64,000 nt of DNA, taken from the NCBI GenBank assembly GCA_964561875.1, contig CAZLQL010000003.1:5822-69821 (forward strand), in the 5' to 3' direction. Both the position numbers and the translations under genes were made by a program. Position 1 is the stretch's first letter. The number at the start of each line of letters is the position of its first letter. The notes below the pieces were generated by a model. That model ran no database searches. It saw only the letters and a program-made list of their open reading frames with translations, and was not told where the DNA came from. Of this stretch, positions 8-63,159 are shown one piece after another. Source of the DNA: an uncultured Candidatus Saccharibacteria bacterium. Its GTDB lineage: Bacteria; Patescibacteriota; Minisyncoccia; Phycocordibacterales; PALSA-1337.

Positions 8-1354
8 GTGAACTACAAAGAATACTTCAAAGATAAGAATATAGCCATAATAGGCTTAGGTTTGTATGGGGAAATGGTTCCTGATATAAAGTTCCTTAAA
101 AATCTAAAATCAAATATAACGATTTTTGATACAAGGAGTAAATCTAAAATCGAATCCTTCATAAAGAAATTGGGTCCAAAATATAGTGATTCAGTAAAGA
201 TAGGTAAGATAAACCCTGATGATTTGATAGATAAAGATCTGATTATATTATCCTCAGATATTCACCCAAAATCTCTTTTCTTAAAAAAGGCAAAAGAAGC
301 AAATATTCCTATAGAATATCAAGAGATTGTGTTTTTGAAATTTTCTCCAAATATAACCCTTATTGGTATTGCTGGATCTTATGGAAAAACCATGATTTCA
401 AAATTGATTTATTCTATATTTAAAAATGATCCAAAGAGCATATCTCCACAAAATTTCTATGCTATAGATCATGAGTCAAACAGTGGGTATATTTCAAATC
501 TAAAAAAGATTAAAGCAGGAGATATTGTTATATCTGAAATACCTGAATACATGATAAATGAGTATAAAAATGCAAACATAAATCCACATATTGCAGTTAT
601 AACATCTCTAACATCATTGGGTAACGGTGGTGACAATGAAGTCTTTAGTTTACTTGAAAGACAAACATACAATAACTTTATTATTGCCCCAGATAGTGTG
701 ATTGATGTTCTTAGACATAGATTTGGTTTTACTGCTAGAGCAAAAATATTTAGAACTAGAAAAGGTCTCATACCTGCCAATTGGAAAGTTAATATACAGT
801 ATTCACAATACAAAGAGAGTGCTTCGCTAGCCTTACAAGTAAGTGAAATATTTAAGATTGATAGAGATATAGCTCAAGGTGTTATAGAGGGTTTTAAGGG
901 TATAAAAGGTCATATGGAGCTAGTTAGATCCATAAGAGGGGTGGATTATTATAATGATGCCGGTTCGACTAGTCCTGAGGCTACTAGGTCTGCAATTATA
1001 AACTTATCAAAAGACAATACTAATCCAGAAGATAAAAATATTATATTGATAATCGGTGGGGCTTACACTGGTTATGAGTATCAGTCACTTATAGAGAGTA
1101 TAGGTCAAAATGTAAGATTTGTAATATGCTTACCAGGTAGCGGAACTGTTGGTTTTAGGAATCAATTACTCTCGTTAAAAAATGTTGATTTTAAACAGGT
1201 GTTAGATTTAAGGGAAGCACTTACTTGTGCAAAAGAAAATTCTAAAAAGGGTGATAAAGTAATATTTAGTCCCGCTTGTATTGCACTTGGTGTATTTGAA
1301 AATAGATTAGATAGAATTGATAAATTTGCAAAACTTGTTAAGGGTTTGAAATAA
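8..1354 (+). CDS. murD: UDP-N-acetylmuramoylalanine--D-glutamate ligase (MurD-like Mur ligase)
   Basis: GTG start. N-terminal IAIIGLGLYG Rossmann-like segment followed by Mur-ligase ATP-binding loop GIAGSYGKT. 448 aa, typical for MurD. Confidence 0.7.
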   Translation: MNYKEYFKDKNIAIIGLGLYGEMVPDIKFLKNLKSNITIFDTRSKSKIESFIKKLGPKYSDSVKIGKINPDDLIDKDLIILSSDIHPKSLFLKKAKEANIPIEYQEIVFLKFSPNITLIGIAGSYGKTMISKLIYSIFKNDPKSISPQNFYAIDHESNSGYISNLKKIKAGDIVISEIPEYMINEYKNANINPHIAVITSLTSLGNGGDNEVFSLLERQTYNNFIIAPDSVIDVLRHRFGFTARAKIFRTRKGLIPANWKVNIQYSQYKESASLALQVSEIFKIDRDIAQGVIEGFKGIKGHMELVRSIRGVDYYNDAGSTSPEATRSAIINLSKDNTNPEDKNIILIIGGAYTGYEYQSLIESIGQNVRFVICLPGSGTVGFRNQLLSLKNVDFKQVLDLREALTCAKENSKKGDKVIFSPACIALGVFENRLDRIDKFAKLVKGLK

Positions 1355-2242
1355 CTATATACCACAGATAATACACACATTTGTACCAGATAGTTTTCTT
1401 GTATAAGAATCTTTTATAAGTCCGACAATAGATAAAACACCATTCGGAGATATATCCATACCAGTATTGTTCTTAACAATATCCATGGCGTTTAAAATTT
1501 CTTCATTTGTCGCTATAAAACATTTACTACCAGAATCTTTTATAAGTTTTAATAGTGCCTCTTTTCTAAAAGCGGTTTTATCGACTATTGCATCGGCAAC
1601 AGATATCTCATTTTTTGGAATGTCTTCTGTTATGTTGTCGACCATATAGTGACATGATGATGTTTGTATAATATTTACTTCTATATCTTTTTTATTTTTA
1701 ATAAAATATTCAAGTAGTGCTTGTGCTGTTGTTCCAGATGATGAACCTATATAAACTCTTTTTACACCAGGAATATCTATTATCTCTTTTGCTAAACTCT
1801 CATAACCCAATAGGGCATTGTCATCGGTAGATTGTCTTAAACCTTTTATACTCTCATCTTTTGTTCTTTCAAACAAAGACTGTAAAGGTTTTTCAACTTG
1901 ATTTAATCTTATATTTTCATCTATCAAATCATTTATCTTTTTTAATTTTATTTTATTTACTTTATTACCAACTAAAATTTCTAGCTTTATTTTATCTTCT
2001 CTTTTTTCATTTATCCCTTTTATATATAGCCCCGCAGCCAAACCAGCGTTTCCAGATGATGATATAACAAACTCCTTTATACCTTGTTCCAAGTATATAT
2101 CTATCATTTTAGGTATAGATCTACCTTTGTGTGAACCGTAGACATGCTTATCCTCTCTTTTTAGCACTACATTTTTAACCTCTAAAATTTCATTTAGAGC
2201 CGGGTATTCTTCGTTTGGAGTTGTAACTTTATCTATATGCAT
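1355..2242 (-). CDS. PLP-dependent enzyme, fold type II (cysteine synthase / threonine synthase family)
   Basis: KREDKHVYGSHKGRS corresponds to the PLP-lysine motif (xNPTGSxKDR). ISSSGNAGLAAG matches the glycine-rich phosphate-binding loop SSGNTG of CysK/CBS-type enzymes. 295 aa. Confidence 0.6.
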   Translation of the reverse strand: MHIDKVTTPNEEYPALNEILEVKNVVLKREDKHVYGSHKGRSIPKMIDIYLEQGIKEFVISSSGNAGLAAGLYIKGINEKREDKIKLEILVGNKVNKIKLKKINDLIDENIRLNQVEKPLQSLFERTKDESIKGLRQSTDDNALLGYESLAKEIIDIPGVKRVYIGSSSGTTAQALLEYFIKNKKDIEVNIIQTSSCHYMVDNITEDIPKNEISVADAIVDKTAFRKEALLKLIKDSGSKCFIATNEEILNAMDIVKNNTGMDISPNGVLSIVGLIKDSYTRKLSGTNVCIICGI

Positions 2243-2291
2243 ATTGATATACTACACTCTTTTGTGTACTATTAGAAGTATACAGAAATAT

Positions 2292-2456
2292 ATGAAATCA
2301 ATTTGTCCAGAATGTAAAAACAACATAGATTTATCAAGATACACAAATATCAAAGAGGGTATGGTTATTGAATGTAATCACTGCGGTATTACTCTACTTA
2401 TAAAAAATATAAAAGACAACGTTATCGGTACAGATATAGTTGATGAAGGTAAATAA
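2292..2456 (+). CDS. Small zinc-ribbon protein (CPEC...CNHCG), LysW-like layout, 54 aa
   Basis: The track ORF starts at 2244; the internal in-frame ATG at 2292 gives MKSICPECKNN...VIECNHCGITLLIK. Two CxxC pairs with the same spacing pattern as amino-group carrier LysW, but the C-terminus is DIVDEGK rather than EDWGE. Confidence 0.35.
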   Translation: MKSICPECKNNIDLSRYTNIKEGMVIECNHCGITLLIKNIKDNVIGTDIVDEGK

Positions 2457-2460
2457 CTAT

Positions 2461-3855
2461 TTATTTACTTAGTTTTTGAACTGTTTCTTCTATCATTCCT
2501 CTGAATCCATGTGACCCAAGAAAGGCAATTACATCGCCTTTTTTTGTGTTGTCTATAAGGAAGTTTACTAATTCATCGTCATTATCAATATATTTTGTAT
2601 TCTTATGAGTCTTTGAAATGGTCTCAGACAATTCGTTTCCTTCCATTGGTTTTTCGGCACCATCTTCACTTATTTTAAGTTTTGAAAGTCTGGGTATTAT
2701 CACAATATCTGCACTATCAAATGCATTGTCATAAAGTGCGCTTGTATTTCTTTCTCTACCACCAATGTTTGGCTCAAATATGGTTATTATTTTGCCTTCA
2801 TATATAGATCTTAAACTGTTCAAAACAGATATTGCTTTTTCTCCAGAATGGGCAATATCATCGAAAACCTTTATATCTCCATCAAGTCTTTTTTCAAGTC
2901 TTCTCTTCATTCCTTTAAATTTTGCAATAGATTTTATTATTTTCTCAGGATTTATACCTATACTATTTGCCATAGCAAAAGCACCTGCTATATTTTCTGC
3001 TTGGAAACTACCAAGAAGATTTGATTGGATTTTGTATGTTTCGCCATTATTTTCAATATCAAAGACTAGACCTTCTTTTGTTTGTTTTATGTTTTTGTAT
3101 ATATAATCAGCATTTTCTTTACCATAAAATATTGCATTTTTAATTACTTTCTTTATACCCTCATTGTCTTTATTGGCTACAATTATTCCATCTTTGGGTA
3201 TGCTGTCTATTAACTTTCTAAATACTTCAAAATAGCTTTCTTCGGTAGGGTATAGATCTGCATGATCCCAAGATATTGCAGTTAGTAATAAGTGATTTGG
3301 TTTATAATAGTAAAATTTTGGTTTATTATCCCAAATAGCAGTTTTGTATTCATCACCTTCAACCACACTTATATTTGAATCAGATATCATTCCTGATTTA
3401 TGAGATAAAGAAACTCCCCCTGTAAAATAACTTGGTTTCAAATCGTTATCTATTAAAATAAAAGATAGAAGAGAAGAAATTGTAGTTTTACCCCATGTTC
3501 CCGTTACTACAATCGATTTATCCTTAACCACATATCTACCTATTGCTTCTGCAAAAGATAGTACTTCTATACCTTTTTCTTTTGCATATATTATTTCTGG
3601 ATTATTTAGACTAGTACCGCTTCCACCTGCGATTATTACTTCTGGTTCGCCTATATTTTCTGGGTGCCATCCAGCATAAAATTCTACTCCATTTTTTTCT
3701 AGATCAGTAGATACAGGAGGGAAGAAACCCTTATCTGAGCCTGTGATTTTATATCCATGGTCTTTTAGAGCTATAGCCAAAGCGCTAGTAGCTACACCAC
3801 AAATACCAACAAAATGAATATGAGTTTTTTTATGATTCATTCTGATATTATACAT
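2461..3855 (-). CDS. murC: Mur ligase, MurC/Mpl family (UDP-N-acetylmuramate--L-alanine ligase or murein tripeptide ligase)
   Basis: N-terminus HIHFVGICGVATSALAIAL...GYKITGSD...FFPPVSTDLEKNGVEF (the YPPMS-like segment is closest to Mpl). ATP-binding loop VTGTWGKTT. 464 aa. Confidence 0.8.
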   Translation of the reverse strand: MYNIRMNHKKTHIHFVGICGVATSALAIALKDHGYKITGSDKGFFPPVSTDLEKNGVEFYAGWHPENIGEPEVIIAGGSGTSLNNPEIIYAKEKGIEVLSFAEAIGRYVVKDKSIVVTGTWGKTTISSLLSFILIDNDLKPSYFTGGVSLSHKSGMISDSNISVVEGDEYKTAIWDNKPKFYYYKPNHLLLTAISWDHADLYPTEESYFEVFRKLIDSIPKDGIIVANKDNEGIKKVIKNAIFYGKENADYIYKNIKQTKEGLVFDIENNGETYKIQSNLLGSFQAENIAGAFAMANSIGINPEKIIKSIAKFKGMKRRLEKRLDGDIKVFDDIAHSGEKAISVLNSLRSIYEGKIITIFEPNIGGRERNTSALYDNAFDSADIVIIPRLSKLKISEDGAEKPMEGNELSETISKTHKNTKYIDNDDELVNFLIDNTKKGDVIAFLGSHGFRGMIEETVQKLSK

Positions 3856-4516
3856 TAACTAATAATTCTTTTACTTCATCGATATCGGTCTTCCATTCTT
3901 TTCCATCAAACCACTCAATACCTTCAAATTGCAATTTGTATACATCACCAGGTCTTTGTAGGGAGCCAAGATAAACATATTTATAATTGTTTTCTTTCGC
4001 AAAGTTTATAGTTTTTGTCATCATTATAAGACCCATATCTTTTATAGATTTTTCTATATCATAAAATGGATAACAATAATGAATCATTTCATTATTTTTA
4101 AATGATATAGCATATCCAGTATTGGAAATATTATCTGAAAAGTTAAATAGTGTATTAAAATTATCTTTTGTTGTGATCAATTCCTTTATCTTATTTGCAG
4201 AAAAAGCACCGTTTGCTTTTTTATCATAAAAATCTTTTGCCATTTTTCCTATATTCCAATCATAACCTAAGTATGGAATCTCAATAATTTTTAATGATAT
4301 ATTTTCTCCTTTTCTTAATATCCTTCGATTTTCACTTGTTAGATTAAATTTAGATATATTTATTCTTACAGATCTAGTCTGGTGCATCACACCTTTATCG
4401 ATACGAGTAAATACGTATCCTTCATTATAAAGTTTATTTATATCATGTTTATCACCAATCTTTTTTTCGTCCCAGTGTAAATATTCCATATTAGTGAAGT
4501 GCAAGCCAGAAACCAA
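3848..4516 (-). CDS. Aminoacyl-tRNA--protein transferase homologue (Bpt / ATE family, GNAT-like fold)
   Basis: N-terminal EGYVFTRID...RSVRINISKFNLTSENRRILRK resembles the ATE_N block GFRRSG...VRIPVxxFxxSxSQRR. C-terminal GYAISF..HYCYPFYD and YKYVYLGSL..YKLQFEGIEW resemble the ATE_C blocks LSAVYFFYDP and YLYLGYWI..YK..F.P.E. Overlaps murC by 8 nt and mraY by 26 nt. Confidence 0.45.
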   Translation of the reverse strand: MVSGLHFTNMEYLHWDEKKIGDKHDINKLYNEGYVFTRIDKGVMHQTRSVRINISKFNLTSENRRILRKGENISLKIIEIPYLGYDWNIGKMAKDFYDKKANGAFSANKIKELITTKDNFNTLFNFSDNISNTGYAISFKNNEMIHYCYPFYDIEKSIKDMGLIMMTKTINFAKENNYKYVYLGSLQRPGDVYKLQFEGIEWFDGKEWKTDIDEVKELLVNV

Positions 4517-5618
4517 AAACTACAAATATAAAGTGCAATATCCAAAATCTCATAATAGTTTTTTCTTCGCTCCATCCTATCATTTCAAAATGGTGGTGTA
4601 GTGGAGCCATACGGAATATTCTTCTGCCCAGTATGTATTTTCCAGCAATTTGAATAAGAACTGATATGGCTTCTATGTAGAACATAAAACCTAAGAAAAA
4701 TAGGGTACTTATTTCACCAATTGCAAGAGTGTTTACAGCAAGCAAAGCCCCCAATCCCAAAGATCCTACATCTCCCATCATAAATCTGGCTGGTTTAATA
4801 TTGAAATATGTATATGAGACCAAAGCTCCAACTGCAGTGGCATTCAATACTGCAATTTCTCCAAAACCATTTATCCAAGACAATAGTGTTAGTACTGAAA
4901 AAGTAGGTATCATCATACCTCCTGCCAATCCATCCATTCCATCAGCTATATTCACCGCATTTGCTGTAAACATAACTATGAATATTATTATCGGTATAAT
5001 GAACCAACCTGCAAAAACTTCATAACCAAAAGGGAAGTATATATAGTGCCAAGCTGGACCTAGTTTGTCATATACCCACCAAGCAGTTATAGATCCAGCT
5101 ATAAACTGAAGTACTAGCTTTTCATGAACAGCAATACCTTTTACTGTTCTTGATCCTATCCACACAGAAGTTCTTTTAAATATTGACCAAGGTAAAGTTA
5201 TTGCATACCATATTCTCATCTTCATTTCTTTGTGTATCTTGATCAGGTGTATTATATGAGACAATTTTCTTGACCTTCTTTCTGTACCAAATATATTCAT
5301 AAGATCATCTATACCTCCAAGTATTGCTGAAAGTATCATTACTCCTATAGGTACCCAAGTAAAACTTCTAGACCAGTTAAAAAGAATTGTTACTATAGCT
5401 ACAACAACTATAACAAGTAGTCCTCCCATTATTGGAGTGTTATCTTTTCCTTTTCTAGATTCGATTTTACTTAGTTCAATCTTAGGATTTTTTATTATAT
5501 GAAATCTCTTTAGTAAGTGTATGAGTAATGGCGCACATAAAAAAGCTATAGCACAGCTAAATATTGAAAAACCAAGAATATAGCCAAGATCGGCCGTTCC
5601 TTCTAGTATGCTTATCAT
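4491..5618 (-). CDS. mraY: Phospho-N-acetylmuramoyl-pentapeptide transferase
   Basis: Polytopic membrane protein with the MraY signatures NTPIMGGL, MGDVGSLGLGA and RMAPLHHHFE. Confidence 0.92.
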   Translation of the reverse strand: MISILEGTADLGYILGFSIFSCAIAFLCAPLLIHLLKRFHIIKNPKIELSKIESRKGKDNTPIMGGLLVIVVVAIVTILFNWSRSFTWVPIGVMILSAILGGIDDLMNIFGTERRSRKLSHIIHLIKIHKEMKMRIWYAITLPWSIFKRTSVWIGSRTVKGIAVHEKLVLQFIAGSITAWWVYDKLGPAWHYIYFPFGYEVFAGWFIIPIIIFIVMFTANAVNIADGMDGLAGGMMIPTFSVLTLLSWINGFGEIAVLNATAVGALVSYTYFNIKPARFMMGDVGSLGLGALLAVNTLAIGEISTLFFLGFMFYIEAISVLIQIAGKYILGRRIFRMAPLHHHFEMIGWSEEKTIMRFWILHFIFVVFGFWLALH

Positions 5619-5670
5619 AAGCCAATATTAGCTTAAAATAGGCCTTTTTTCAATGTTAATTAATTTTGTT

Positions 5671-6450
5671 TTAGTCTAAGAAATTTAGTCTACGTAGTTC
5701 AGTTACAGAGTTTTTTGCACTACTAAATGTATAGTTATCATCACTTAATTTTTCACTCTCAATCCATCTTTGATCAATGATATTTTTTTCACTGTCGATT
5801 ATCTCTATTATTCCATCTTTGACTCCATGATTGTATTCACCGTGACTTGGCCAAGCTATAGAATGAGTATAGTGAATTTTTATAGGTTTAAAATTCTGAT
5901 ATTCAACCTGATATATTATGAGTATATGATTTCTTTCTCCTAAGCCACTATTTTTTTGCATAGTTATCATATCACCAACTTTTATATCGTTTATTTTTAT
6001 TGTTTTAGAATTTTTATTATTTACAAATGTTTCGACATTTGTATTTTCTACAGGTCTTATCATTGCTCTTAGTTTACCCAATATACCTTTTGAATCAGTA
6101 AATTTTAAATTTTTATCTAAACCTCCTTTATTTAGACTTTGGCTAAGACTATTAAATACATAGTATGCATATCCTGAACAATCAATACCTATGTCATTGT
6201 TTACTAAAAACTTTTTTAAACTATCATTTGTAAATTCATTTGTATCTATTTTTTGAGATATACAAAGTTGTTCTACTTCATCAAATATTTCTTTTGGACT
6301 ACCTTTACCTATTTCAACGCGTAATCTTGCTCTGCCACCTTTATGTTTATTGTTGTAATAGGGAATAGAGCAAATAGCTTTACCAAATTTGAAATTTGTA
6401 TATTGATTTATTACTTCTATTGATTTTTCATTTATAAACTTTGTATTCAT
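5671..6450 (-). CDS. Hypothetical protein with DCSG motif (possible NlpC/P60- or transglutaminase-like cysteine peptidase/amidase)
   Basis: GIDCSGYAYYVF contains the Cys-containing DCSG motif typical of NlpC/P60-type papain-fold enzymes. His-containing segments (HILIIY, HYTHS) lie downstream. No other family recognised. Confidence 0.3.
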   Translation of the reverse strand: MNTKFINEKSIEVINQYTNFKFGKAICSIPYYNNKHKGGRARLRVEIGKGSPKEIFDEVEQLCISQKIDTNEFTNDSLKKFLVNNDIGIDCSGYAYYVFNSLSQSLNKGGLDKNLKFTDSKGILGKLRAMIRPVENTNVETFVNNKNSKTIKINDIKVGDMITMQKNSGLGERNHILIIYQVEYQNFKPIKIHYTHSIAWPSHGEYNHGVKDGIIEIIDSEKNIIDQRWIESEKLSDDNYTFSSAKNSVTELRRLNFLD

Positions 6451-6453
6451 TTT

Positions 6454-7581
6454 TTAAATCAATGATTCCAATATAGCTTTTCCTCTTTTATTAAATTTAT
6501 TATGTGATTCCATTATTCCCATATTTGACTGGATTCTTATTAAATCACTATTTAATTTCGTATTGTTGTATTTGATTATATTATATCCGAGGTCCTTTAG
6601 AGTATTTGTATCTACAGTAATATCATTCTTTGTAACTCTTTTTACTATTTGAGCCCCGTCATTTATTTCTATGGTGTCTTCATCTATTTCTTCATCTAAA
6701 AGTGACTTTATATGTGCTTCAAATACTGTAATACCTTTAAGACCCTCATTTCTATTTTGGATTTGAAGCTTTGACTCAAATGTTGTAGACGCAGGTTGTC
6801 TAGCATTTATTTCTATTAAGTATATTTTATCTAGTTCTTCATCGTAAATAACATCTATTCCAAACAATCCTTTCCATCCAGAGTTACGCATTTTATCTGC
6901 TACTTTTTTTGATATATTTTGTATTTCTTCTATTTTATTTTCTGTAAGGATTGATGGTGGTACACTCCAATCATTTCCTATTGTACTCATCTGATTGTCG
7001 GTAAAGGGTAGTACACCTGTTATTTGATAGCTTATGTTTCCAAATAAGTTTTTATTTTTCCCCACAATAATGTTTTGTGTAAACATGGGTCCTTTAATGT
7101 ATTTTGTAACTCTAGCTTCTCTATTTGGGAATTTGGCTTTTATTTCGGTAAGATCTTTTTCTTGATTGATTAAAAATGTTCCTTCTCCAGTATGGCTATG
7201 TGCCCACTGAAGTACAAACACTTCTTTTTCCCAGACTATATCTTTTGCCAACTGGATCTTGTGGGGCGGTAAGAATTCTTTTCCTATATCTGATAACCAT
7301 TCTGTTTGAGTAATTTTATTTTCAATCTTCTCTGCAAGTTCTGCACTTGGGTTTAGTAAATTAATATCATTTTCTTTTGCAATATTTTCAATCTGAATAT
7401 TATTTTTAAATACCAAGACTGAAAGTTTTTCTTTTTTAATATTGTCTAGTGTAGATTTTTCTGATATCAAGGAAAGTGTATCTTTTTCACCATGTTCAGA
7501 AAGTATTGAATAAAATTCATTTTCAGGCATAGAATCCGCCCTCTCTCTATCTCTTGTTATGTATAGTATTTTCTTTTTCAT
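6454..7581 (-). CDS. ATP-grasp domain protein (Ddl-/RimK-like ligase of unknown substrate)
   Basis: C-terminal GLFGIDVIYDEELDKIYLIEINARQPAST matches the ATP-grasp Mg/ATP-binding core (E-x-N). Upstream WAHSHTGEGTFLI is a P-loop-like segment. The N-terminal 100 aa do not match canonical Ddl. Confidence 0.6.
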   Translation of the reverse strand: MKKKILYITRDRERADSMPENEFYSILSEHGEKDTLSLISEKSTLDNIKKEKLSVLVFKNNIQIENIAKENDINLLNPSAELAEKIENKITQTEWLSDIGKEFLPPHKIQLAKDIVWEKEVFVLQWAHSHTGEGTFLINQEKDLTEIKAKFPNREARVTKYIKGPMFTQNIIVGKNKNLFGNISYQITGVLPFTDNQMSTIGNDWSVPPSILTENKIEEIQNISKKVADKMRNSGWKGLFGIDVIYDEELDKIYLIEINARQPASTTFESKLQIQNRNEGLKGITVFEAHIKSLLDEEIDEDTIEINDGAQIVKRVTKNDITVDTNTLKDLGYNIIKYNNTKLNSDLIRIQSNMGIMESHNKFNKRGKAILESLI

Positions 7582-7616
7582 TTTATTTAAAACACTATAC
7601 CATATTATGAAATACC

Positions 7617-7853
7617 GTGTATAATAGACTCACATTAGTTTTTTATTTAAATTTTATGTCAAAAAGACAATTACTTTCTCTTATAGGTGTTTGGAATATA
7701 TTCTTTCTTTTTTTAGGTATACCTACTGCTTGGGATAAAATACTTTCAATTTTAGTCGGTATTATCATTATTGTGATTGCTTACAGGTTGCCCTATGAAG
7801 AGAAGAATAAAATAGCCACTGACAAAGAAGAGACATTCATAGAAAATAAATAA
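7617..7853 (+). CDS. Small hypothetical membrane protein
   Basis: 78-aa ORF with two hydrophobic helices immediately upstream of the next + strand gene. Confidence 0.3.
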   Translation: MYNRLTLVFYLNFMSKRQLLSLIGVWNIFFLFLGIPTAWDKILSILVGIIIIVIAYRLPYEEKNKIATDKEETFIENK

Positions 7854-7858
7854 TATAA

Positions 7859-9034
7859 ATGATTCCGAAAGTTCTTTACAAAAACAGTTTAATTGCAAGT
7901 AGTACAGTAGCTGTTATTGTAATAATTTTATTTTTTATAAATAAAATACCTTTTACATATCAGGCATACACTAGCGCTGTAGATGATGGAGTGTCTTCCA
8001 CTACAATATTACTCAATAGACGTATTCCAAGACATGTAAAGACACCAGAACCACTAAAAGCTATTTATATGACTAGTTGGGTTGCTGGTAGTGAAAGGTT
8101 GAGAAGTAAACTTATTGATTTTATTGATACTTCTGAATTGAATGCAGTAGTTATAGATATAAAGGACTATACCGGTCGTATTTCTTTTGAAGTAAATGAT
8201 GAGAAGTTAAAAGAGGTTGGATCAGTTGAAAAAAGAATTACTGATATAGATGAATTAATCGAGAGATTGCATGATAAAGGTATATATGTAATTGGTAGAA
8301 TATCTTGTTTTCAAGATTCTTATTTTGTAAAAAGATATCCTCAATATGCAGTAAAGACAAAAAGCGGGGAAGTTTGGAAAGATTATAAAGGTATAAGTTG
8401 GCTTGATGCTGGAGCTGTACCCGTATGGGATTATTTGGTAAATATTGGAAATGAAGCATATAAAATAGGCTTCGATGAATTAAATTTTGATTATATTAGA
8501 TTTCCTTCAGATGGAAATATGAATGATATTTCATATTCATATGCAAATGGAAGATCAAAACCAGATGTATTAAAAGATTTTTTTGCACATTTAGATAAAG
8601 AATTTAGAAATAAAGATATACCAATATCAGCAGATTTGTTTGGTATGACAACTTCAAATAATGATGACTTGGGTATAGGGCAGATACTTGGAAATGCCCT
8701 TATACATTTTGATTATGTTGCGCCTATGATTTATCCATCTCACTACCCACCAAATTTTAACGGTTGGCCAAATCCTGCAAAAGAACCTTATGCAGTTATA
8801 AAGTTTGCTCTTGAAAAAGGTAAAGAAAAAGCAGATCTTGCTAGTACTAGTCCAAATAAGCTGAGACCTTGGTTACAAGATTTCGGTATAAATGGGGTGA
8901 CTTATACTCCTGATATGGTACGTACACAGATACAAGCTACTTATGATGTTGGGCTTACTAGTTGGATGATGTGGAATGCTTCAAATGTATATTCTACTTC
9001 TGCTTATAAAACTGAATTAAATAATAAAAAATAA
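7859..9034 (+). CDS. Membrane-anchored putative glycoside hydrolase-like TIM-barrel protein (DUF4015/YngK-like)
   Basis: N-terminal TM helix. KAIYMTSW...NAVVIDIKDYTG...GIYVIGRISCFQD...FDYIRFP pattern is typical of the GH-like DUF4015 family. Confidence 0.45.
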   Translation: MIPKVLYKNSLIASSTVAVIVIILFFINKIPFTYQAYTSAVDDGVSSTTILLNRRIPRHVKTPEPLKAIYMTSWVAGSERLRSKLIDFIDTSELNAVVIDIKDYTGRISFEVNDEKLKEVGSVEKRITDIDELIERLHDKGIYVIGRISCFQDSYFVKRYPQYAVKTKSGEVWKDYKGISWLDAGAVPVWDYLVNIGNEAYKIGFDELNFDYIRFPSDGNMNDISYSYANGRSKPDVLKDFFAHLDKEFRNKDIPISADLFGMTTSNNDDLGIGQILGNALIHFDYVAPMIYPSHYPPNFNGWPNPAKEPYAVIKFALEKGKEKADLASTSPNKLRPWLQDFGINGVTYTPDMVRTQIQATYDVGLTSWMMWNASNVYSTSAYKTELNNKK

Positions 9035-41248: not shown

Positions 41249-42268
41249 GTGAATATAATTTCTGGCCCAAATTTAAATAATTTGACAACTTTTCGTATCG
41301 GGGGTAAAGCCCGATTTTTTTGTAGTATAAATAGTATAGAAGATATAGAAAAAGCATTAGAATTCGCTTCAAATAATAATTTAAAGATATTTGTTTTAGG
41401 TGGAGGTTCAAATATACTTTTTTCGGACGAAGGTTTTGATGGTTTGGTAGTAAAGATGGAAATGATGGGTGTAAATGTTGAAGATATAGATGATGAAAAG
41501 AGTTTGGTTGAAGCTTTTGCAGGTGAGAATTGGGATGATTTTGTAAAATTTACTGTAGATAAAGGATTATATGGTCTTGAAAATTTATCATATATACCAG
41601 GTACAGTAGGAGCAAGTCCGGTTCAAAACATCGGAGCGTATGGAAGTGAAGTGAAAGATACTATTTATTCTGTAAAGGTATTTGATATAAAGGATAATAA
41701 AATAGTTTTTTTTAACAACAAGGATTGTGATTTTAGTTATAGAAATAGTATTTTTAAAAAGAATAAAGGTAGGTATATCATAGTTTCAGTTAAATTTATT
41801 TTAAATAAAAAAGGTAAATTAAATCTTGAGTATAAAGATATTAAAGAATATTTATTAAAAAATAATATAAAGAATCCAACACTTTTAGATATTAGAGAAG
41901 CTGTAATAAATATAAGGAAGAATAAATTACCAGATATTGGTCTTGTCGGTACAGCAGGTTCATTTTTTAAAAATCCAATTATAAAAAAGGAAAAGGTAGT
42001 TGAATTAAAAGTTAAATGGCCAGAATTGCCTGTGTATGATCATAATGATGAGGAAGTTAAGGTCTCTTTAGCATGGATAATCGATAAAGTATGTGGTTTA
42101 AAGGGTTTGAGTAAGGGGAATGTCGGTATATATAAGAATCAGGCATTAGTACTGGTAAATAATGGAAATGCTACAGCACAAGAAGTAAAAGATTTTGCAA
42201 ATATTATAATAAAATCTGTAAAGGATATGACAGGTATAGATATAGAAACTGAGGTGGAATGGGTTTAG
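41249..42268 (+). CDS. murB: UDP-N-acetylenolpyruvoylglucosamine reductase
   Basis: N-terminal NLTTFRIGGKARFF (FAD-binding, MurB-typical), 339 aa, GTG start. Confidence 0.85.
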   Translation: MNIISGPNLNNLTTFRIGGKARFFCSINSIEDIEKALEFASNNNLKIFVLGGGSNILFSDEGFDGLVVKMEMMGVNVEDIDDEKSLVEAFAGENWDDFVKFTVDKGLYGLENLSYIPGTVGASPVQNIGAYGSEVKDTIYSVKVFDIKDNKIVFFNNKDCDFSYRNSIFKKNKGRYIIVSVKFILNKKGKLNLEYKDIKEYLLKNNIKNPTLLDIREAVINIRKNKLPDIGLVGTAGSFFKNPIIKKEKVVELKVKWPELPVYDHNDEEVKVSLAWIIDKVCGLKGLSKGNVGIYKNQALVLVNNGNATAQEVKDFANIIIKSVKDMTGIDIETEVEWV

Positions 42269-51571: not shown

Positions 51572-51576
51572 TATTG

Positions 51577-51914
51577 TGTACCAGACAGTTGCTGTGATAT
51601 GAAAATATCATAGAGGAAAGTCCGAACATCGGTCTATTTATTTAGACAGCAAGGTAGCGGGTAACGCCCGTCAGTCGAAGGACTAGAGGTGCGAACAGAG
51701 ACGTCTTTATTGGAAACGATAAAGAAACCCTTAGGGGTTAGCTTGTATAGAAATATACGAGGTGCAACGGCAAAATCCTTACCCCGATGCAAGGCCGTGC
51801 TTGTAAATAGTAAAATATTTATAAGAGTGCCGCTTGAGGTTAACTGCAAAGTTAATCCCAGATAAATGACTGTCGTTCGTCTTTGGCGAATACAGAATTC
51901 GGCTTACAGGTACA
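51577..51914 (+). ncRNA. rnpB: RNase P RNA (bacterial)
   Basis: AGGAAAGUCCGAAC (P4 5' strand) and ACAGAAUUCGGCUUA (P4 3' strand/3' end consensus). P1 TGTACC/GGTACA pairing. P3 hairpin TGTGATAT-gaaa-ATATCATA. GGUGCAACGGCAAA (P10-12 region). Confidence 0.8.
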
Positions 51915-51916
51915 AT

Positions 51917-54457
51917 ATGAAAAAACTCTCCTTAGCGGTGAGTTTTTTCATTTATATAAATACCTATTTTTATACATATGTTTTTGATATAATATTATCT
52001 GTTATTAATATAGTAAAAATAGAAATGAATCCAACAACAAAGAGTGCATTATTAGAAAAGATAGAATCATTGGCGATATATGCGGGCGTACTTCTAGCAA
52101 TAGTAGGTTTTATACCAACAAATATAATACCTTTTGATACTGCAAAGACTGTATTTATCGCTGGATCAGTATTACTAGCTATATTTGCTTGCATTGTAAA
52201 ATCAATCAAAAGTAATTCATTTACTATACCTACTGGTCCTATAGCTTATACAAGCTATTTGATCATACTGTCTGCAATAGCTTCATCGATACTTAGTAAA
52301 AATTTTGTAAAATCATTCTTTGGACAAGGATTTGAAATGTATACTGGTAGTTTCCTCATCATAATGGTTCTTGGAATGATATTTTCCATAAGATTTTTCG
52401 ACAATCAAGATAAAAAAGTATTCAATGTATTTGCCATAATATCTCTAGCATATATATTTGTATTTCTTTATCAGATAATGAAGGTATTTGGCGGAGACAC
52501 ATTCTTTACTATGGGTGTATTCAATAGTGCTACATCAAGTATTGTTGGAAAATGGTATGACTTCTCTATTTTTTCTCTTGTAGCATCACTTCTATCTATA
52601 TTTGCTATAAAGTTCTTACCAATAAAAGGTAAGGTTAGAATAGGGTTTTTCATTCTATTTGTAATATCTTTAATATCTCTTCTTATAACAAATTTCTCAA
52701 TATCTTGGTGTGTGCTATCTATCGTAAGTTTACTACTTGGAATATATGAATTTACTTCAAATAAAGTTAAATCAGATGGTAGTTCACAAACAGTAAAATT
52801 AAAGAGATACTCATTATTTACAATAGTAATATTTGTAGTATCTGTTCTAGGATATTGGCAACATGATTTTATAGGTAAGACAGTTTATAAAGTATTTAAG
52901 TTAAACAATATAGAGTTAGTTTTGCCATGGCAGTACACTCTAGATGTTGCCACGGGAACAATTAAAGAGTCACCTTTATTTGGTTCTGGTCCGAATAGAT
53001 TCTCATATGAATTTCTAAAATATAAACCAAACACAATAAACAATACTCCTTTCTGGTCAGTAGAATTTGTAAATGGGGTTGGTGTACTACCTACTTTATT
53101 TATAAATCTAGGTTTAGTTGGTAGTATTTTGTGGATAGTTTTCTTGGTTCTATTTGTGAGATTGGGTATATTAACATTAAAAAATAAAAATGAAGGATTT
53201 AAGAAATATACTATAGTATCTTCATTCTTTATATCGTTGTCTCTTTGGATGGTTATGTTTGCATACAATCCATCACATGCATTATATTTCCTAACTTTCG
53301 TATTTACAGGTATATTCTTTTCAACAGCATTAAATTCAAATCTGATTAGATTAAAAGAATACAATCTAGGTAAGCAGTCATTCATAAGCAAAGTAATGTG
53401 GTTGGTGCCATTTGTTGGAGTATTAGCTGTAGTTGTGTGGGGTCTAATATATGTAAAAAAAGTTATAGCAATTACTTATTTCCAAATGGGTATTAAAGAA
53501 ATATCTACCGGTAAATCAGTAGATAATGCTGAAAAGTATTTTACATCATCAAACAAATGGGATACTTACGATGTTTATTATCAAGCTCTTTCTGAAGTAT
53601 CAATATTGAAAATAAATAACTTTACTCAAGAGTTTAATGCAAAGCAGGTTAAGCCTACAGAAAAGGAAGTGGGTGCTGTATCAACAATGATAAATAATGG
53701 AATAGATAATTCTAAGAAAGCTATAGAGTTTGATACAACAAATTATTACAATTATACTTCTTTAGCTAGAGTTGCTGATGTTGCTTCTTCACTAAAGGTT
53801 GCAAATGCTTATGAAAATTCAAGAGGAGGATATATTGAAGCATTAAAATACAATCCAGCTAACCCAGCTATATACCTTTCATTAGCAAAATTGGATGCAG
53901 TAAATGGAAAGATAGATGAAGCAAAACAAAATATCCAAAGATCACTTATTTTGAAACAGGATTATACAGACGCAGTGTTCTTATTGTCTCAGATTCAGAC
54001 TCAAAATGGAGAAATAGCAAATGCAATAGAATCTACAAAGGTTGCAACACAGATTGAACCATCAAACTCAGTATTATTCTTCCAACTTGGAATATTGTAT
54101 TACAATAATAAAGACTATAAGAATGCTTCAGAAGCTCTAAATAAAGCAGTATCATTGAATGGTCAGTATGCAAATGCTAGATATTTCCTTGGTCTAGCTT
54201 ACGCAAGGTTGAATGATGATAAAAATGCCATAACTCAGTTTGAAGAGTTGGTAAAAACAAATCCTGATAACCAAGAAGTAGCACTTATTCTATCGAATCT
54301 AAAACTCGGTAAGTCACCATTTAGTGATGCAAAACCACCTATAGATAGTAAACCAGAGAAGAGAAGTAAACTTCCTGTTGTAGAGAAGTCAAATGCATCA
54401 TCTGGGACAAATAGTGGAACAGGCTCAAATACAACAAAAGCAAAATCTGCAAACTAG
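51917..54457 (+). CDS. O-antigen ligase-like polytopic membrane protein with C-terminal TPR repeats (paralogue of 38381-40603)
   Basis: ~12 TM helices followed by TPR-like repeats (YNNKDYKNASEALNKAVSLNGQYANARYFLGLAYARLND...). Start moved from the track's 51866 because that region is RNase P RNA. Confidence 0.5.
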   Translation: MKKLSLAVSFFIYINTYFYTYVFDIILSVINIVKIEMNPTTKSALLEKIESLAIYAGVLLAIVGFIPTNIIPFDTAKTVFIAGSVLLAIFACIVKSIKSNSFTIPTGPIAYTSYLIILSAIASSILSKNFVKSFFGQGFEMYTGSFLIIMVLGMIFSIRFFDNQDKKVFNVFAIISLAYIFVFLYQIMKVFGGDTFFTMGVFNSATSSIVGKWYDFSIFSLVASLLSIFAIKFLPIKGKVRIGFFILFVISLISLLITNFSISWCVLSIVSLLLGIYEFTSNKVKSDGSSQTVKLKRYSLFTIVIFVVSVLGYWQHDFIGKTVYKVFKLNNIELVLPWQYTLDVATGTIKESPLFGSGPNRFSYEFLKYKPNTINNTPFWSVEFVNGVGVLPTLFINLGLVGSILWIVFLVLFVRLGILTLKNKNEGFKKYTIVSSFFISLSLWMVMFAYNPSHALYFLTFVFTGIFFSTALNSNLIRLKEYNLGKQSFISKVMWLVPFVGVLAVVVWGLIYVKKVIAITYFQMGIKEISTGKSVDNAEKYFTSSNKWDTYDVYYQALSEVSILKINNFTQEFNAKQVKPTEKEVGAVSTMINNGIDNSKKAIEFDTTNYYNYTSLARVADVASSLKVANAYENSRGGYIEALKYNPANPAIYLSLAKLDAVNGKIDEAKQNIQRSLILKQDYTDAVFLLSQIQTQNGEIANAIESTKVATQIEPSNSVLFFQLGILYYNNKDYKNASEALNKAVSLNGQYANARYFLGLAYARLNDDKNAITQFEELVKTNPDNQEVALILSNLKLGKSPFSDAKPPIDSKPEKRSKLPVVEKSNASSGTNSGTGSNTTKAKSAN

Positions 54458-58958: not shown

Positions 58959-59501
58959 TTGAAATATATAAGAAATATAAAAATCAGTAAAAAGTATAAG
59001 GATATACTTAGATCAAAACAAGGTGGTAGTAGATTGAAGTCAATAAAAGAATGGGATATAGCAAGAAAAAAAGCTGATTTATTGGTTGGTAATATGTCGA
59101 TAAGTAATATTATAATGTTGACGGTAGGTCTGTATTGGGGTGAGGGTACAAAAAGTCAATTTAATCTTATAAATGGTGATCCGTATTTAATAAAAATATT
59201 TATTAGAGGTTTATATTTAATTGGAGTTCCTAAAAATAGAATTAAATTTAGCCTTAGAATATATCAAGGTATGGATGAAAACTTATTAAAAGATTTCTGG
59301 CAAAACTTTTTAGAAATTAAAAAAGAGCAATTTAGAAATTCGGAGTTTATATATGGAAATACTAATAATAAATTAAGGTATGGAATGTGTAGAGTTACTA
59401 TCATTAAACCAGCAGAGTATTTCAAACTTCTGATGAGTGTGATACATTCTATTAAACAGATAAGTCATCATAGTTCAATGGATAGAACGAGGGACTCCTA
59501 A
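58959..59501 (+). CDS. LAGLIDADG-like putative homing endonuclease (single motif)
   Basis: IMLTVGLYWGEGTKS fits the LAGLIDADG pattern (G-L...acidic-G). TTG start in track. The ORF runs 38 nt into tRNA-Arg and stops in its anticodon loop. Confidence 0.3.
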   Translation: MKYIRNIKISKKYKDILRSKQGGSRLKSIKEWDIARKKADLLVGNMSISNIIMLTVGLYWGEGTKSQFNLINGDPYLIKIFIRGLYLIGVPKNRIKFSLRIYQGMDENLLKDFWQNFLEIKKEQFRNSEFIYGNTNNKLRYGMCRVTIIKPAEYFKLLMSVIHSIKQISHHSSMDRTRDS

Positions 59502-59535
59502 GCCCTAAATGCAGGTTCGATTCCTGCTGGTGACA
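59464..59535 (+). tRNA. tRNA-Arg (anticodon CCT)
   Basis: Cloverleaf: acceptor GTCATCA/TGGTGAC (one G-U). D-arm GTTC-AATGGATA-GAAC. Anticodon loop CTCCTAA. T-arm GCAGG-TTCGATT-CCTGC. 72 nt, CCA not encoded. One 31-39 mismatch. Confidence 0.7.
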
Positions 59536-59571
59536 CTAATTTATGAGCAGTAAATATGTTATAATATTTTT

Positions 59572-60020: not shown

Positions 60021-60096
60021 GCCAAGGTAGCTCAGTTGGTAGAGCGCTCCCCTGAAGAGGGATAGGTCACCAGTTCGATCCTGGTCCTTGGCACCA
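60021..60096 (+). tRNA. tRNA-Phe (anticodon GAA)
   Basis: GCCAAGG acceptor. GCTC-AGTTGGTA-GAGC D-arm. Anticodon loop CTGAAGA. T-arm ACCAG-TTCGATC-CTGGT. CCTTGGC-A-CCA encoded. 76 nt. Confidence 0.9.
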
Positions 60097-61800: not shown

Positions 61801-62069
61801 TTACCAAATTATAACCCAAATTACCCAAATATCGTTGGGGAAAAGACTTCATGTTATTCATTTGTATAACATATACATTAAGACTTGGTTATATAACTAA
61901 ATAAAGATAAATAAAGATATCAGCTTGACAAATTCCTATTTTGTGATAGGGTACAAAGTAAATGTGTTCTTTGACAGGAATCTTCAATTGTGTTGTTTTT
62001 CCCGTGTGGGATAGACGTCAGGATATGTCCTGCACATTGTCGATTTCAGAAGAACTATAGGAGGATAGA

Positions 62070-62936
62070 ATGAAACACTTGTTTGCACTCATGTTCGCCA
62101 TCATGACGATGGCGTTTCGGACTGTCGGGGCTGACACTATCACCGTTAAGGTGTATGCGTCTGTCGGGCCACTTACTTCGTCACCGGATTTTCCGACCTT
62201 TGCGTCGGATTTCTTGAACGACGCGTATTCGGGCAATGTTTTGCCCGGGCCGGTGTCGATGACAACCTTCAACAGGGTTGGTCCCAAGTTCGAGCCGGGC
62301 TGGCTCATGGGCGGGAAGACCATCTGGTTTGCCACTGTCATGGAGAGGGCTGGGAAGTCATTTCTCCCTACCAATCTCACTGCCCAGATTACGTCTGGAC
62401 CAAATGGTCTCTTCAACAAGGTGGAGTTGTATGCGAATACAAACTTTATCTACGCCGGAACATCTCGGGGAGAAATCACGGAGTCAAATGGATCCAAGAC
62501 TCTCTTTAACGGGGGTCGATGGTCCGATCAGTCCGTCAACAAGTTTGCTTTCCTTGGAACGGCAAACAAGACCATGAATGCCAACAGTCAGGCGGAAATG
62601 GATTCGAACACCGCCTGGATGATGGGTTTCCCCAACTTCACACTTGAATGCCAATGGGCAATCAAGGAAAACGGGGTCATCGCCGGTATCGGCAGTGTGG
62701 TACTCGAGACCAAGCCCGAGATCGTGGTAACCCCGCCACATCTCACCGTCGTTCGCGACGTTGCAGGGAAGGTGAAGCTTACCTCGCCTGATCTTGTTGG
62801 TACGGCTTCCATCGAAGCCACCGACAGTATCAAGACCCCGGTTTGGACTGGAGTCTCGACCCTCAATGGTCAGGTTCCGACCATCCTCAATGCGGATGGC
62901 CAGACAAAGTTCTTCAGATTGAAGGTGGTGGAATAA
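62070..62936 (+). CDS. Secreted protein of unknown function, GC-rich (probable horizontally acquired gene)
   Basis: About 56% GC versus about 30% background. GC-rich codon usage. AGGAGG SD 6 nt upstream. N-terminal signal peptide MKHLFALMFAIMTMAFRTVGA. Shadow ORFs on both strands as expected for a high-GC gene. Confidence 0.6.
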   Translation: MKHLFALMFAIMTMAFRTVGADTITVKVYASVGPLTSSPDFPTFASDFLNDAYSGNVLPGPVSMTTFNRVGPKFEPGWLMGGKTIWFATVMERAGKSFLPTNLTAQITSGPNGLFNKVELYANTNFIYAGTSRGEITESNGSKTLFNGGRWSDQSVNKFAFLGTANKTMNANSQAEMDSNTAWMMGFPNFTLECQWAIKENGVIAGIGSVVLETKPEIVVTPPHLTVVRDVAGKVKLTSPDLVGTASIEATDSIKTPVWTGVSTLNGQVPTILNADGQTKFFRLKVVE

Positions 62937-62956
62937 ACACCTTCAACCCCCACAAC

Positions 62957-63008
62957 AGCACCCAGTCTTCAAGGCTTCACGCTAAGAAGATTGGGTGCTT
63001 TTCGTTTT
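62957..63008 (+). terminator. Rho-independent terminator (long loop)
   Basis: AGCACCCA...TGGGTGCT followed by TTTCGTTTT. Confidence 0.4.
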
Positions 63009-63090
63009 AATCTATATTATACATCTGTATTTAAACCTATATTTATACCTATACTTCATCAAAATACATACATAAATAACTACAGCCCCC

Positions 63091-63120
63091 TTGACTTTTT
63101 CCTCATTATCGTGTATACAT
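63091..63120 (+). promoter_or_regulatory. Promoter TTGACT-N17-TATACA
   Basis: Consensus-like -35 hexamer and a TG-preceded -10, about 40 nt upstream of the ATG at 63160. Confidence 0.35.
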
Positions 63121-63159
63121 ATTGGGTAATTATTAGACAATAATTAACATATAAAATCA

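Follow-up and report, generated by a model that had tools for sequence, protein, structure and literature searches.

The window analysed here, a 64-kb stretch of DNA, encodes between mraY and murC a relative of the bacterial arginyltransferase Bpt and of eukaryotic ATE1, and this relative belongs to a family that adjoins peptidoglycan genes in at least four independent arrangements. The window protein is probably a tRNA-dependent aminoacyl transferase of the ATE/Bpt branch that acts on a peptidoglycan precursor or peptide in a Fem-like role. Homology and gene context strongly suggest a cell-wall role for the ATE/Bpt-like family; from these we infer a Fem/MurM-like activity for the window protein itself, with a presumed dependence on tRNA, a presumed peptidoglycan acceptor and a putative attachment site on it.

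The longest open reading frame at this position (3848-4516, minus strand) runs for 222 aa from a TTG codon, confirming the report in an earlier note of a reading frame flanked by a MurC-type ligase and MraY. Translation almost certainly starts at the ATG at 4489, because M1 of the resulting 213-aa form (MEYLHW...) is conserved in every one of 36 homologues; the TTG at 4516 is without conservation. The ATG sits 1 nt past the mraY stop codon (TAAtATG), and the 26-nt overlap with mraY given in the earlier note was an artefact of taking the longest frame. The 8-nt overlap claimed with murC stands if that gene begins at the ATG at 3855, and gives way to a 7-nt spacer if it begins at the ATG at 3840, the point from which tblastn aligns a distant MurC. 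With either murC start, all three genes lie close together, head to tail, on the same strand. A promoter and terminator scan of 2200-7900 found no excess over the shuffled expectation, so that co-transcription is neither supported nor contradicted.

Features of the window around the ATE/Bpt-like gene, with window coordinates.
Feature	Position	Strand	Remarks
ATE/Bpt-like CDS	3851..4489	-	213 aa, MEYLHW...LLVNV; stop codon 3848-3850
Basic helix S52-E-N-R-R-I-L-R-K60	4310..4336	-	candidate counterpart of tRNA-binding alpha3 (ATE1, FemX, aaPGS)
GNAT core, residues 133-176 (HYCYPFYD...GLIMM...YVYLGS)	3962..4093	-	Pfam ATE_C match
Y184-K185, predicted catalytic Tyr-Lys dyad	3935..3940	-	invariant in 27/27 aligned members
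mraY (phospho-MurNAc-pentapeptide transferase)	4491..5618	-	TIGR00445 E 6e-49; directly upstream of the ATE/Bpt-like gene
murC-type Mur ligase	2461..3855 (start 3855 or 3840)	-	TIGR01082 E 9e-77; directly downstream
NlpC/P60-like gene	5671-6450	-	Pfam; upstream member of conserved block
ATP-grasp gene	6454-7581	-	Pfam; upstream member of conserved block
murD	8-1354	+	other end of conserved block
PLP-dependent PALP enzyme gene	1355-2242	-	other end of conserved block
LysW-like zinc ribbon gene	2244-2456	+	other end of conserved block

Homology of the window protein to Bpt/ATE is solid and far above chance. Alignment by hhalign of the family profile with two canonical Bpt proteins gave a probability of 98.8 % (E 5.7e-17, 173 columns) and paired window residues 26-200 with residues 57-245 of S. 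meliloti Bpt, bearing out the proposal that both halves of Bpt are represented. Six NCBIfam models of bacterial arginyltransferase (Bpt) match residues 37-202 with E-values from 5e-10 to 4e-5 and a seventh matches more weakly (E 2e-3). The top score, 39.4 bits, is below the equivalog cut-offs of 170-358. Among 27 diverse family members the Bpt models were likewise the only NCBIfam matches, with a best E-value of 3e-14 and none near the equivalog cut-offs. The Pfam profile check proposed in the earlier note gave a divided result: ATE_C is sub-threshold in the window protein alone (23.2 bits, cut-off 25; E 1e-4) and is matched in 25 of the 27 members, and ATE_N is matched in none of the 27 at E-values up to 1. 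A PDB sequence search with the close-family profile returned nothing relevant, and the broad profile found ATE1 only at E 0.3; this low-confidence alignment, for which the G, YLG and YK motifs served as anchors, was used for residue mapping only.

Bpt (NCBIfam PRK01305 models; Pfam ATE_N and ATE_C) is the closest sequence relative, with a similar size (about 260 aa) and common motifs comprising R-x-x-R...F..S..RR, the GNAT core, Y-L-G and the catalytic Y-K, at about 20 % identity. The absence of the N-domain cysteines was upheld: the sole Cys is C139, and C63, C66 and C69 of Bpt align to K32, M35 and T38. Compared with ATE1 (PDB 8TZV, 7WFX, 7TIF), the window protein is less than half the size and is without the zinc finger or Fe-S site and the C-terminal domain.

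The AF2 model of the window protein has a pLDDT of 92.6. In structural comparison ATE1 matches best, along the whole length, and the top-scoring folds are all those of tRNA-dependent transferases; Bpt models, hhalign and structural comparison therefore agree on the GNAT-type aminoacyl-tRNA-transferase fold suggested earlier. The GNAT core aligns to residues 238-292 of Saccharomyces cerevisiae ATE1 and also to Bpt, and the predicted dyad Y184-K185 aligns to Y229-K230 of Bpt and Y303-K304 of ScAte1. In KlAte1 the Y303F and K304A variants are inactive; ATE1 Y303-K304 correspond to F304-K305 of FemX, K304 being the counterpart of FemX K305 (PMC9351520). The model has a helix at residues 52-60 that aligns to Bpt T82-RSMRRVLAA, and S52, E53, N54 and R56 are invariant across the 27 members, whose identity falls as low as 21 %. 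A tRNA-binding role has been described for the alpha3 helix in ATE1, FemX and aaPGS (PMC9351520).

Another possibility is an acyl-CoA-dependent GNAT enzyme whose N-acylation target would be an amino acid or a peptidoglycan precursor and which would not use tRNA. The GNAT K-x-x-G-x-G loop, as read from the family alignment, is kept in several other clades, so that an acyl-CoA donor is possible there; in the window's clade this CoA-pyrophosphate loop is degenerate (K-D-M-G-L-I). Together with the best-scoring folds and with the invariance of the Tyr-Lys dyad and basic helix, which are typical of tRNA-dependent enzymes (PMC9351520), this makes tRNA-independent acylation very unlikely.

The family comprises thousands of members, mostly from Patescibacteria, and adjacency to cell-wall genes is found in hundreds of Patescibacteria genomes. 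Relatives of the window protein come from Paceibacteria/Taylorbacteria-type MAGs. The profile scan of genome contigs used a close alignment and sampled only the window's own clade; a second clade was sampled by a metagenome scan, the broad alignment being too diverse for the genome scan. Across the own-clade loci (Paceibacteria/Magasanikbacteria-type, 51-71 % identity) mraY lies upstream on the same strand in 82 of 82, with a median gap of 12.5 nt (30 nt or less in 54 of 82), and murC follows downstream wherever the locus extends far enough (76 of 76), with inserts of 0.2-3 kb in about half of the cases. The order of the NlpC/P60-like and ATP-grasp genes is kept in nearly all of the 82 loci, and that of murD and the PALP and LysW-like genes is also conserved in them. 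Since this 12-kb block is wholly syntenic in the own clade, that part of the conservation could reflect inheritance rather than selection.

Other clades present different neighbours. In Microgenomates-type homologues, with roughly 26-30 % identity to the window protein, the family gene (X) occupies a full dcw cluster (about 34 loci) in the order rsmH-ftsI-murE-X-murC-murB-murA-(ddl)-murF-mraY. There murE is upstream in 31 of 31 scan loci, overlapping X by 4 nt where genes were called, and murC follows downstream in every locus with enough sequence except one; murC, murE, murF and ddl are present in these clusters, and murD was not seen. A clade on GC-rich (about 60 %) contigs has the order aminotransferase-ATP-grasp-alr-X; the immediate upstream neighbour of X is alr in 32 of 48 loci, and 12 of the other 16 have too little upstream sequence to show it. 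On a contig that also encodes GldM the order is LdcA-epimerase-aminotransferase-M14-S13 DD-peptidase-X, and a further member (P0226) has the end of a Mur ligase on its upstream side. Distant members were found outside clear cell-wall contexts, in the order trmD-X-rpoB and as a PPDK-type fusion (loci L173 and L175). A three-gene module common to several clades was considered and dropped, the ATP-grasp of the window and that of the alr operon being not detectably related.

Public pipelines name the family arginyl-tRNA--protein transferase or N-end rule aminoacyl transferase. By that annotation the window protein would be a minimal Bpt-type N-degron enzyme, moving Leu or Arg from tRNA to N-terminal Asp or Glu for Clp degradation, and its place in a mur cluster would be incidental. 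Such an enzyme would agree with the restriction of significant sequence-family matches to Bpt/ATE and with the full-length structural match to ATE1, but the score of 39 bits is far from the equivalog cut-offs, and ATE_N and the Cys cluster are missing or replaced. The G-[FW]-R-R-S-G stretch of Bpt lies just upstream of the hhalign block, where the alignment is uncertain; the window protein has L-Y21-N-E-G24-Y-V-F at this site, and neither plausible register gives it an Arg pair. In KlAte1, R80 within that motif is essential for binding an acidic N-terminus (PMC9351520). Residues aligned at low confidence with the ATE1 Arg-binding pocket (S255/S273/E277/Y289) are the uncharged Y138, M156, T160 and V172, a weak argument against Arg as the transferred amino acid. 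Genomic context speaks against the N-degron role: canonical bpt is paired with aat, as in Acinetobacter baumannii, whereas the window family occupies four independent peptidoglycan arrangements of mur/dcw type and others, and no aat or clp genes were found in the annotated family loci or the annotated parts of the window. Aat (leucyl/phenylalanyl-tRNA--protein transferase), which belongs to the ClpS N-degron pathway, is much more distant in fold and has no sequence match with the window protein. Lacking ATE_N, the Cys cluster, the Arg pair and the pairing with aat, the window protein does not appear to be an N-degron enzyme in any obvious way, and we consider that role improbable, if the least so of the alternatives.

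The comparison with Fem enzymes runs in the other direction. By sequence the window family is related to ATE/Bpt and not to Fem: Pfam FemAB (PF02388), which covers FemX of Weissella viridescens, FemXAB and MurMN, matches none of the 27 members (the related GNAT model Acetyltransf_6 matches 18), and FemX chains have 337-402 aa, with a coiled-coil insertion that the window protein does not have. The likeness lies in the GNAT-type fold, in a catalytic Lys after an aromatic residue and in the genetic association with peptidoglycan precursor synthesis. The earlier idea of a Fem/MurM-like role is accordingly favoured by the cell-wall context in at least four arrangements, but its description of the family as unrelated to Fem was wrong, because Fem and ATE share both the fold and the catalytic lysine; a similarity between ATE1 and Fem enzymes was noticed long ago (cited in PMC9351520). 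A FemAB gene is also present in at least one genome with a family member (L088), which indicates that the family is not simply a Fem replacement.

A mechanism can be proposed on this basis for a compact 213-aa GNAT-superfamily transferase of the ATE/Bpt branch in which the metal-binding Cys cluster has been lost, as has the Arg-Arg motif with which Bpt/ATE1 hold an acidic protein N-terminus. The basic helix S52-K60 would grip a charged tRNA by its acceptor end, with the aminoacyl ester placed before Y184-K185. This ester would be attacked by a free amine, either on a peptidoglycan precursor or on a murein peptide, and K185 would stabilise the tetrahedral intermediate as happens in FemX and ATE1. 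The attacking group would most likely be the amine on the side chain of the diamino acid at position 3 of UDP-MurNAc-peptide or lipid I/II, and the product a branched stem peptide, giving a Fem/MurM-like role; the gene would share one compact transcription unit with mraY and murC and be expressed together with them. The cell-wall tRNA-Gly genes of Staphylococcus aureus are a precedent for a dedicated tRNA. Against the proposal, no dedicated tRNA gene was found near the ATE/Bpt-like gene in 60 loci, and the two tRNAs of the window (Arg-CCT, Phe-GAA) are 55 kb from it. One unrelated tRNA-Ile lies about 5 kb away in one of the loci (L076).

Because the 64-kb window has no murE, murF or ddl, replacement of a Mur ligase was considered and rejected on chemistry: aminoacyl-tRNA transferases need an amine acceptor, and stem-peptide elongation activates a carboxylate. 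The Microgenomates clusters, moreover, carry murC, murE, murF and ddl beside the gene.

The acceptor may differ from the one proposed, since the neighbourhoods with alr and LdcA suggest a substrate among free amino acids or peptides and not among lipid- or nucleotide-linked precursors. The aminoacyl-tRNA could then extend a soluble amino acid or small peptide, D-Ala-containing or from recycled murein, which a Mur/Mpl-type ligase would load onto UDP-MurNAc. Both the alr, ATP-grasp and aminotransferase operon and the LdcA, epimerase, M14 and S13 cluster handle free amino acids or peptides, the amines on which Bpt and ATE act are the alpha-amines at the N-termini of peptides, and the downstream ligase scores nearly equally on the two models (murC 259 and mpl 211 bits in the window; mpl 211 and murC 204 bits in the Microgenomates-type locus L083). 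Against this, the murC, murE, murF and ddl genes of the Microgenomates clusters encode most of the standard stepwise route, and we give a soluble acceptor a low probability. Transfer to another envelope molecule, whether a lipid head group (as by MprF/aminoacyl-phosphatidylglycerol synthase), a lipid-linked glycan or a teichoic-acid-like polymer, is equally hard to credit: no member matches Pfam DUF2156 at E-values up to 1, the transmembrane flippase domain is absent, and the recurring neighbours murE, murC, alr, DD-peptidase and LdcA all serve the peptide part of peptidoglycan rather than lipids.

Patescibacteria account for a large part of bacterial diversity, and most have not been cultivated; to our knowledge their cell-wall chemistry is essentially undescribed. 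Our literature search, whose coverage was incomplete so that a prior description is possible, brought up no publication that connects ATE/Bpt-like proteins with dcw clusters or with the peptidoglycan of Patescibacteria. A tRNA-dependent transferase conserved in mur/dcw clusters predicts a specific peptidoglycan modification in these bacteria, and it corrects a widespread automatic label, the implied proteolysis pathway probably not being served. The window protein is small, soluble and confidently modelled, making assays straightforward. Lying with ATE/Bpt by sequence and with Fem by genomic context, the family can show how substrate choice, between a protein N-terminus and a cell-wall peptide, evolves within one fold. 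It is possible, though we hold this more tentatively than the activity of the window protein, that the window protein is the founding member of a second, Fem-independent family of tRNA-dependent peptidoglycan-building enzymes, one that derives from the branch of the N-degron enzymes Bpt and ATE1 and occurs almost universally in several of the large lineages of Patescibacteria. In that case the stem peptide of many ultra-small bacteria would be branched, or modified in some other way, with the help of charged tRNA, and the family would be a living link between the cell-wall aminoacyl transferases and the protein-arginylation and N-degron machinery of bacteria and eukaryotes.

The resemblance of X, the minus-strand gene between mraY and murC, to Bpt/ATE transferases is real, as judged by NCBIfam Bpt models and profile-profile comparison. 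The sole NCBIfam matches of its product, the window protein, were seven bacterial arginyltransferase (Bpt) models, six of them with E-values of 5e-10 to 4e-5 over residues 37-202, and in a broad family alignment of 27 proteins Bpt models were likewise every member's only NCBIfam matches. The Pfam profiles divided: ATE_C was matched by 25 of the 27 members, the window protein itself scoring just under threshold (23.2 vs 25 bits, E 1e-4), and ATE_N by none, even at E up to 1. A family profile aligned with two canonical Bpt proteins, those annotated in S. meliloti (pSymB) and A. baumannii, at a probability of 98.8 % (E 5.7e-17, 173 columns), pairing residues 26-200 of the window protein with Bpt 57-245. 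The sequence blocks singled out in an earlier note fall inside this alignment, RSVRI...F.L.SENRR against Bpt SVRI...F...R.MRR on the N-terminal side and YPFYD/YSFFDP, YVYLGS/VYLGYW and YK/YK (window/Bpt) on the C-terminal side. An AlphaFold2 model of the window protein built from 36 homologues was confident (pLDDT 92.6, pTM 0.90). Judged by sequence, the window protein is a divergent sister of Bpt/ATE; databases name family members hypothetical, 'N-end rule aminoacyl transferase C-terminal domain-containing' or 'arginyl-tRNA--protein transferase'.

In K. lactis ATE1, the catalytic Lys304 and the preceding Tyr303 are both essential, and the pair is the counterpart of FemX F304-K305 and of the catalytic Lys in L-PGS and A-PGS; all tRNA-dependent GNAT transferases have in common a basic, tRNA-binding helix, alpha3 (PMC9351520). 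Y184-K185 of the window protein, invariant among members down to 21 % identity, pairs with Bpt Y229-K230 in the profile alignment and with ScAte1 Y303-K304, and S52-ENRRILRK60 forms an invariant basic helix that pairs with a Bpt segment ending RR. Fold, catalytic dyad and basic helix point to an aminoacyl-tRNA donor as the most likely chemistry, and the X product is probably a tRNA-dependent transferase. The window's clade has a degenerate version (K-D-M-G-L-I) of the acetyltransferase CoA-pyrophosphate loop, which reads K-x-x-G-x-G in some other clades. The family had been called unrelated to Fem, wrongly, since Fem, ATE/Bpt, MprF and Aat have a common fold and catalytic lysine (PMC9351520); X is like FemX/MurM in predicted role and lies outside the FemAB family (FemAB Pfam, 0/27).

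K. lactis ATE1 carries a zinc finger (C23/C26/C95/C96), and Arg80 of its ATE_N domain, conserved in Bpt, grips the acidic N-terminal residue (PMC9351520). The N-domain cysteines are absent from the window protein, as had been noticed, those of Bpt YRPxCxxCxxC pairing with K32, M35 and T38. At the position of Bpt GFRRSG the family has Y21-x-x-G24-[FY]-[VL], without the Arg pair in either plausible register, which is suggestive of its loss in a stretch outside the confident alignment block. ATE1 Arg-pocket residues S255, S273, E277 and Y289 pair with Y138, M156, T160 and V172 in a weak alignment (E 0.3) anchored on invariant motifs, a hint that the donor amino acid may not be Arg. The family thus differs from Bpt/ATE in ATE_N, Cys cluster, Arg pair, equivalog scores and genomic context (canonical bpt immediately follows aat in A. 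baumannii and lies amid unrelated genes in S. meliloti), and appears to have lost the features by which Bpt and ATE1 handle an acidic protein N-terminus.

Features of the window and of related loci (L083, L086 and L088, loci of more distant members). Unprefixed coordinates are window positions.
Feature	Coordinates	Strand	Remarks
murD	8-1354		part of block
PLP-dependent PALP enzyme	1355-2242		part of block
LysW-like zinc ribbon	2244-2456		part of block; Pfam Zn_ribbon_LysW, E 2e-5
MurC-type ligase	2461-3855	minus	TIGR01082, E 9e-77
X, longest ORF from first TTG	3848-4516	minus	222 aa
mraY	4491-5618	minus	TIGR00445, E 6e-49
NlpC/P60-like	5671-6450	minus	
ATP-grasp	6454-7581	minus	
murB	41249-42268		alone
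RNase P RNA	51573-51922		class A, 137 bits
tRNA-Arg(CCT) and tRNA-Phe(GAA)	59464-59536; 60021-60096		
Truncated murE beside X	L083:5739-7004; L086:5769-7004; L088:5706-7004		411-432 aa; model matched from ~position 65-97

X lies among genes that run head-to-tail on the minus strand over the first 7.6 kb of the window. Its protein begins MEYLHW, and because the initial Met is invariant in the alignment of 36 homologues the start was placed at the ATG at 4489 (213 aa). The junction between the mraY stop codon and this ATG has the sequence TAAtATG, leaving a 1-nt spacer in place of the 26-nt overlap previously claimed. The 8-nt overlap with murC claimed in the earlier note (X stop codon, 3848-3850) stands if murC starts at 3855 and gives way to a 7-nt gap if it starts at the next ATG, 3840, where the alignment with a distant MurC begins. 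A consensus promoter/terminator scan of the X region was uninformative. G+C is 25-36 % across most of the window, rising to 44 % in the final 2 kb (62001-64000) vs ~30 % elsewhere. No murE, murF or ddl was found in the 64 kb by tblastn with MurE, MurF and Ddl of a Microgenomates cluster, cross-hits being to murC only. A large cell-surface polysaccharide cluster (11866-40603) encodes at least six GT4/GT1-type glycosyltransferases, one each of GT2, GT9 and GT47-like type, a methyltransferase, asparagine synthase, a YfhO-like membrane protein, a Wzx-type flippase and a Wzy_C/TPR protein.

The order ATP-grasp, NlpC/P60, mraY, X, murC, LysW-like, PALP, murD (type A) recurs in all 82 loci of the window's own clade (51-71 % identity). 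Synteny extends over ~9-12 kb in these loci (window 8-9034; L001-L082), with a DUF4015 glycosyl-hydrolase-like gene heading the block. A median of 12.5 nt separates the mraY stop from the X start, with at most 30 nt in 54 of the 82; murC follows X immediately in about half, 0.2-3 kb inserts intervening elsewhere. The X/murC spacer is a hot spot of small opposite-strand insertions (L001:6637-8515, L002:6633-7165 and about half of L003-L082), among them a YafQ-type toxin pair and a Bro-N domain gene, and the mraY/X junction remains tight. The presence of an ATP-grasp enzyme, a LysW-like carrier-type ribbon and a PLP enzyme within a mur cluster hints that an unusual wall amino acid is made or attached.

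Members of a Microgenomates-like clade, ~26-30 % identical to the window protein, lie in the order mraZ-rsmH-(ftsL)-ftsI-murE-X-murC-murB-murA-(ddl)-murF-mraY (type B). murE is upstream of X in 31 of 31 metagenome loci, overlapping it by 4 nt where genes are called, and murC is downstream in all loci of sufficient reach except one. Although the adjoining murE is without its N-terminal domain, its score exceeds the equivalog cut-off for DAP ligases. In L083 a further murE, of full length (495 aa), lies two genes upstream, giving two murE paralogues in that genome. In L088 a FemAB-family gene (L088:1124-2143, 339 aa) adjoins mraY and murF, showing that both kinds of tRNA-dependent transferase can coexist.

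A third clade, on contigs of ~60 % G+C, has the order aminotransferase, GARS-like ATP-grasp, alanine racemase, X (type C), a compact operon at L165:1074-5804 and in ~30 similar metagenome loci, with a large MASE1 hybrid histidine kinase adjoining. alr is immediately upstream of X in 32 of 48 loci (in 12 of the remaining 16, <1 kb of sequence is available upstream), with a 4-nt overlap where genes are called; the operon could produce a D-Ala-containing peptide. On one contig that also encodes GldM (type D; L174:1142-7762), X is last in a murein-peptide enzyme cluster, after an S66 LD-carboxypeptidase, an MR_MLE_C enolase-superfamily enzyme (possibly of Ala-Glu-epimerase type), an aminotransferase, an M14 peptidase and an S13 DD-peptidase. 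One further member has a Mur ligase end upstream. Exceptions are a member between trmD and rpoB and a PPDK/PEP-utilising fusion without clear cell-wall neighbours. The latter (P0253, 809 aa; L175:7001-9430) is joined on its C-terminal side to a phosphotransfer module of rifampicin-phosphotransferase/PEP-synthase type, with PPDK_N and PEP-utilizers domains.

The close family gave 1216 database matches, the best 120 at ≥60 % identity, and its motifs are present in 282 species-level genomes. These relatives are all Patescibacteria MAGs, labelled Taylorbacteria, Paceibacteria, Nomurabacteria, Magasanikbacteria, Parcubacteria or Minisyncoccia, some TPA bins carrying the labels Saccharibacteria or Gammaproteobacteria. 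Of 1.8 billion cluster representatives, a profile search returned only 410, indicating a small, sharply delimited family. A second sub-family (245-270 aa, 12-residue N-terminal extension, 2208 matches) is named, where names are given, Shapirobacteria, Microgenomates or Dojkabacteria.

X is found repeatedly beside enzymes that build or trim the peptide part of peptidoglycan, in neighbourhoods that do not all derive from one ancestral gene order. It cannot replace a Mur ligase, since transferases of this kind require a nucleophilic amine and stem-peptide elongation activates a carboxylate. A free peptide is a live alternative as acceptor in view of the alr (type C) and recycling (type D) contexts. 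Taken together, the lost N-terminus features, the recurrent cell-wall contexts and the transferase chemistry point to a peptidoglycan precursor or murein peptide as the most likely acceptor, and that X acts on a peptidoglycan precursor or peptide is somewhat favoured; any particular acceptor or donor is much less certain. The obvious candidate for the acceptor amine is the one on the side chain of the diamino acid at position 3, as for FemX and MurM; in type B this residue would be put in by the adjoining murE. It may be speculated that the distal end of meso-DAP, with amine and carboxylate on one carbon, bears a loose resemblance to the amino-plus-acid acceptor on which Bpt acts. A full-text, non-exhaustive literature search found no study of this family and none on a tRNA-dependent route of cell-wall synthesis in Patescibacteria, and the role of X is open to a clear, inexpensive experimental test.
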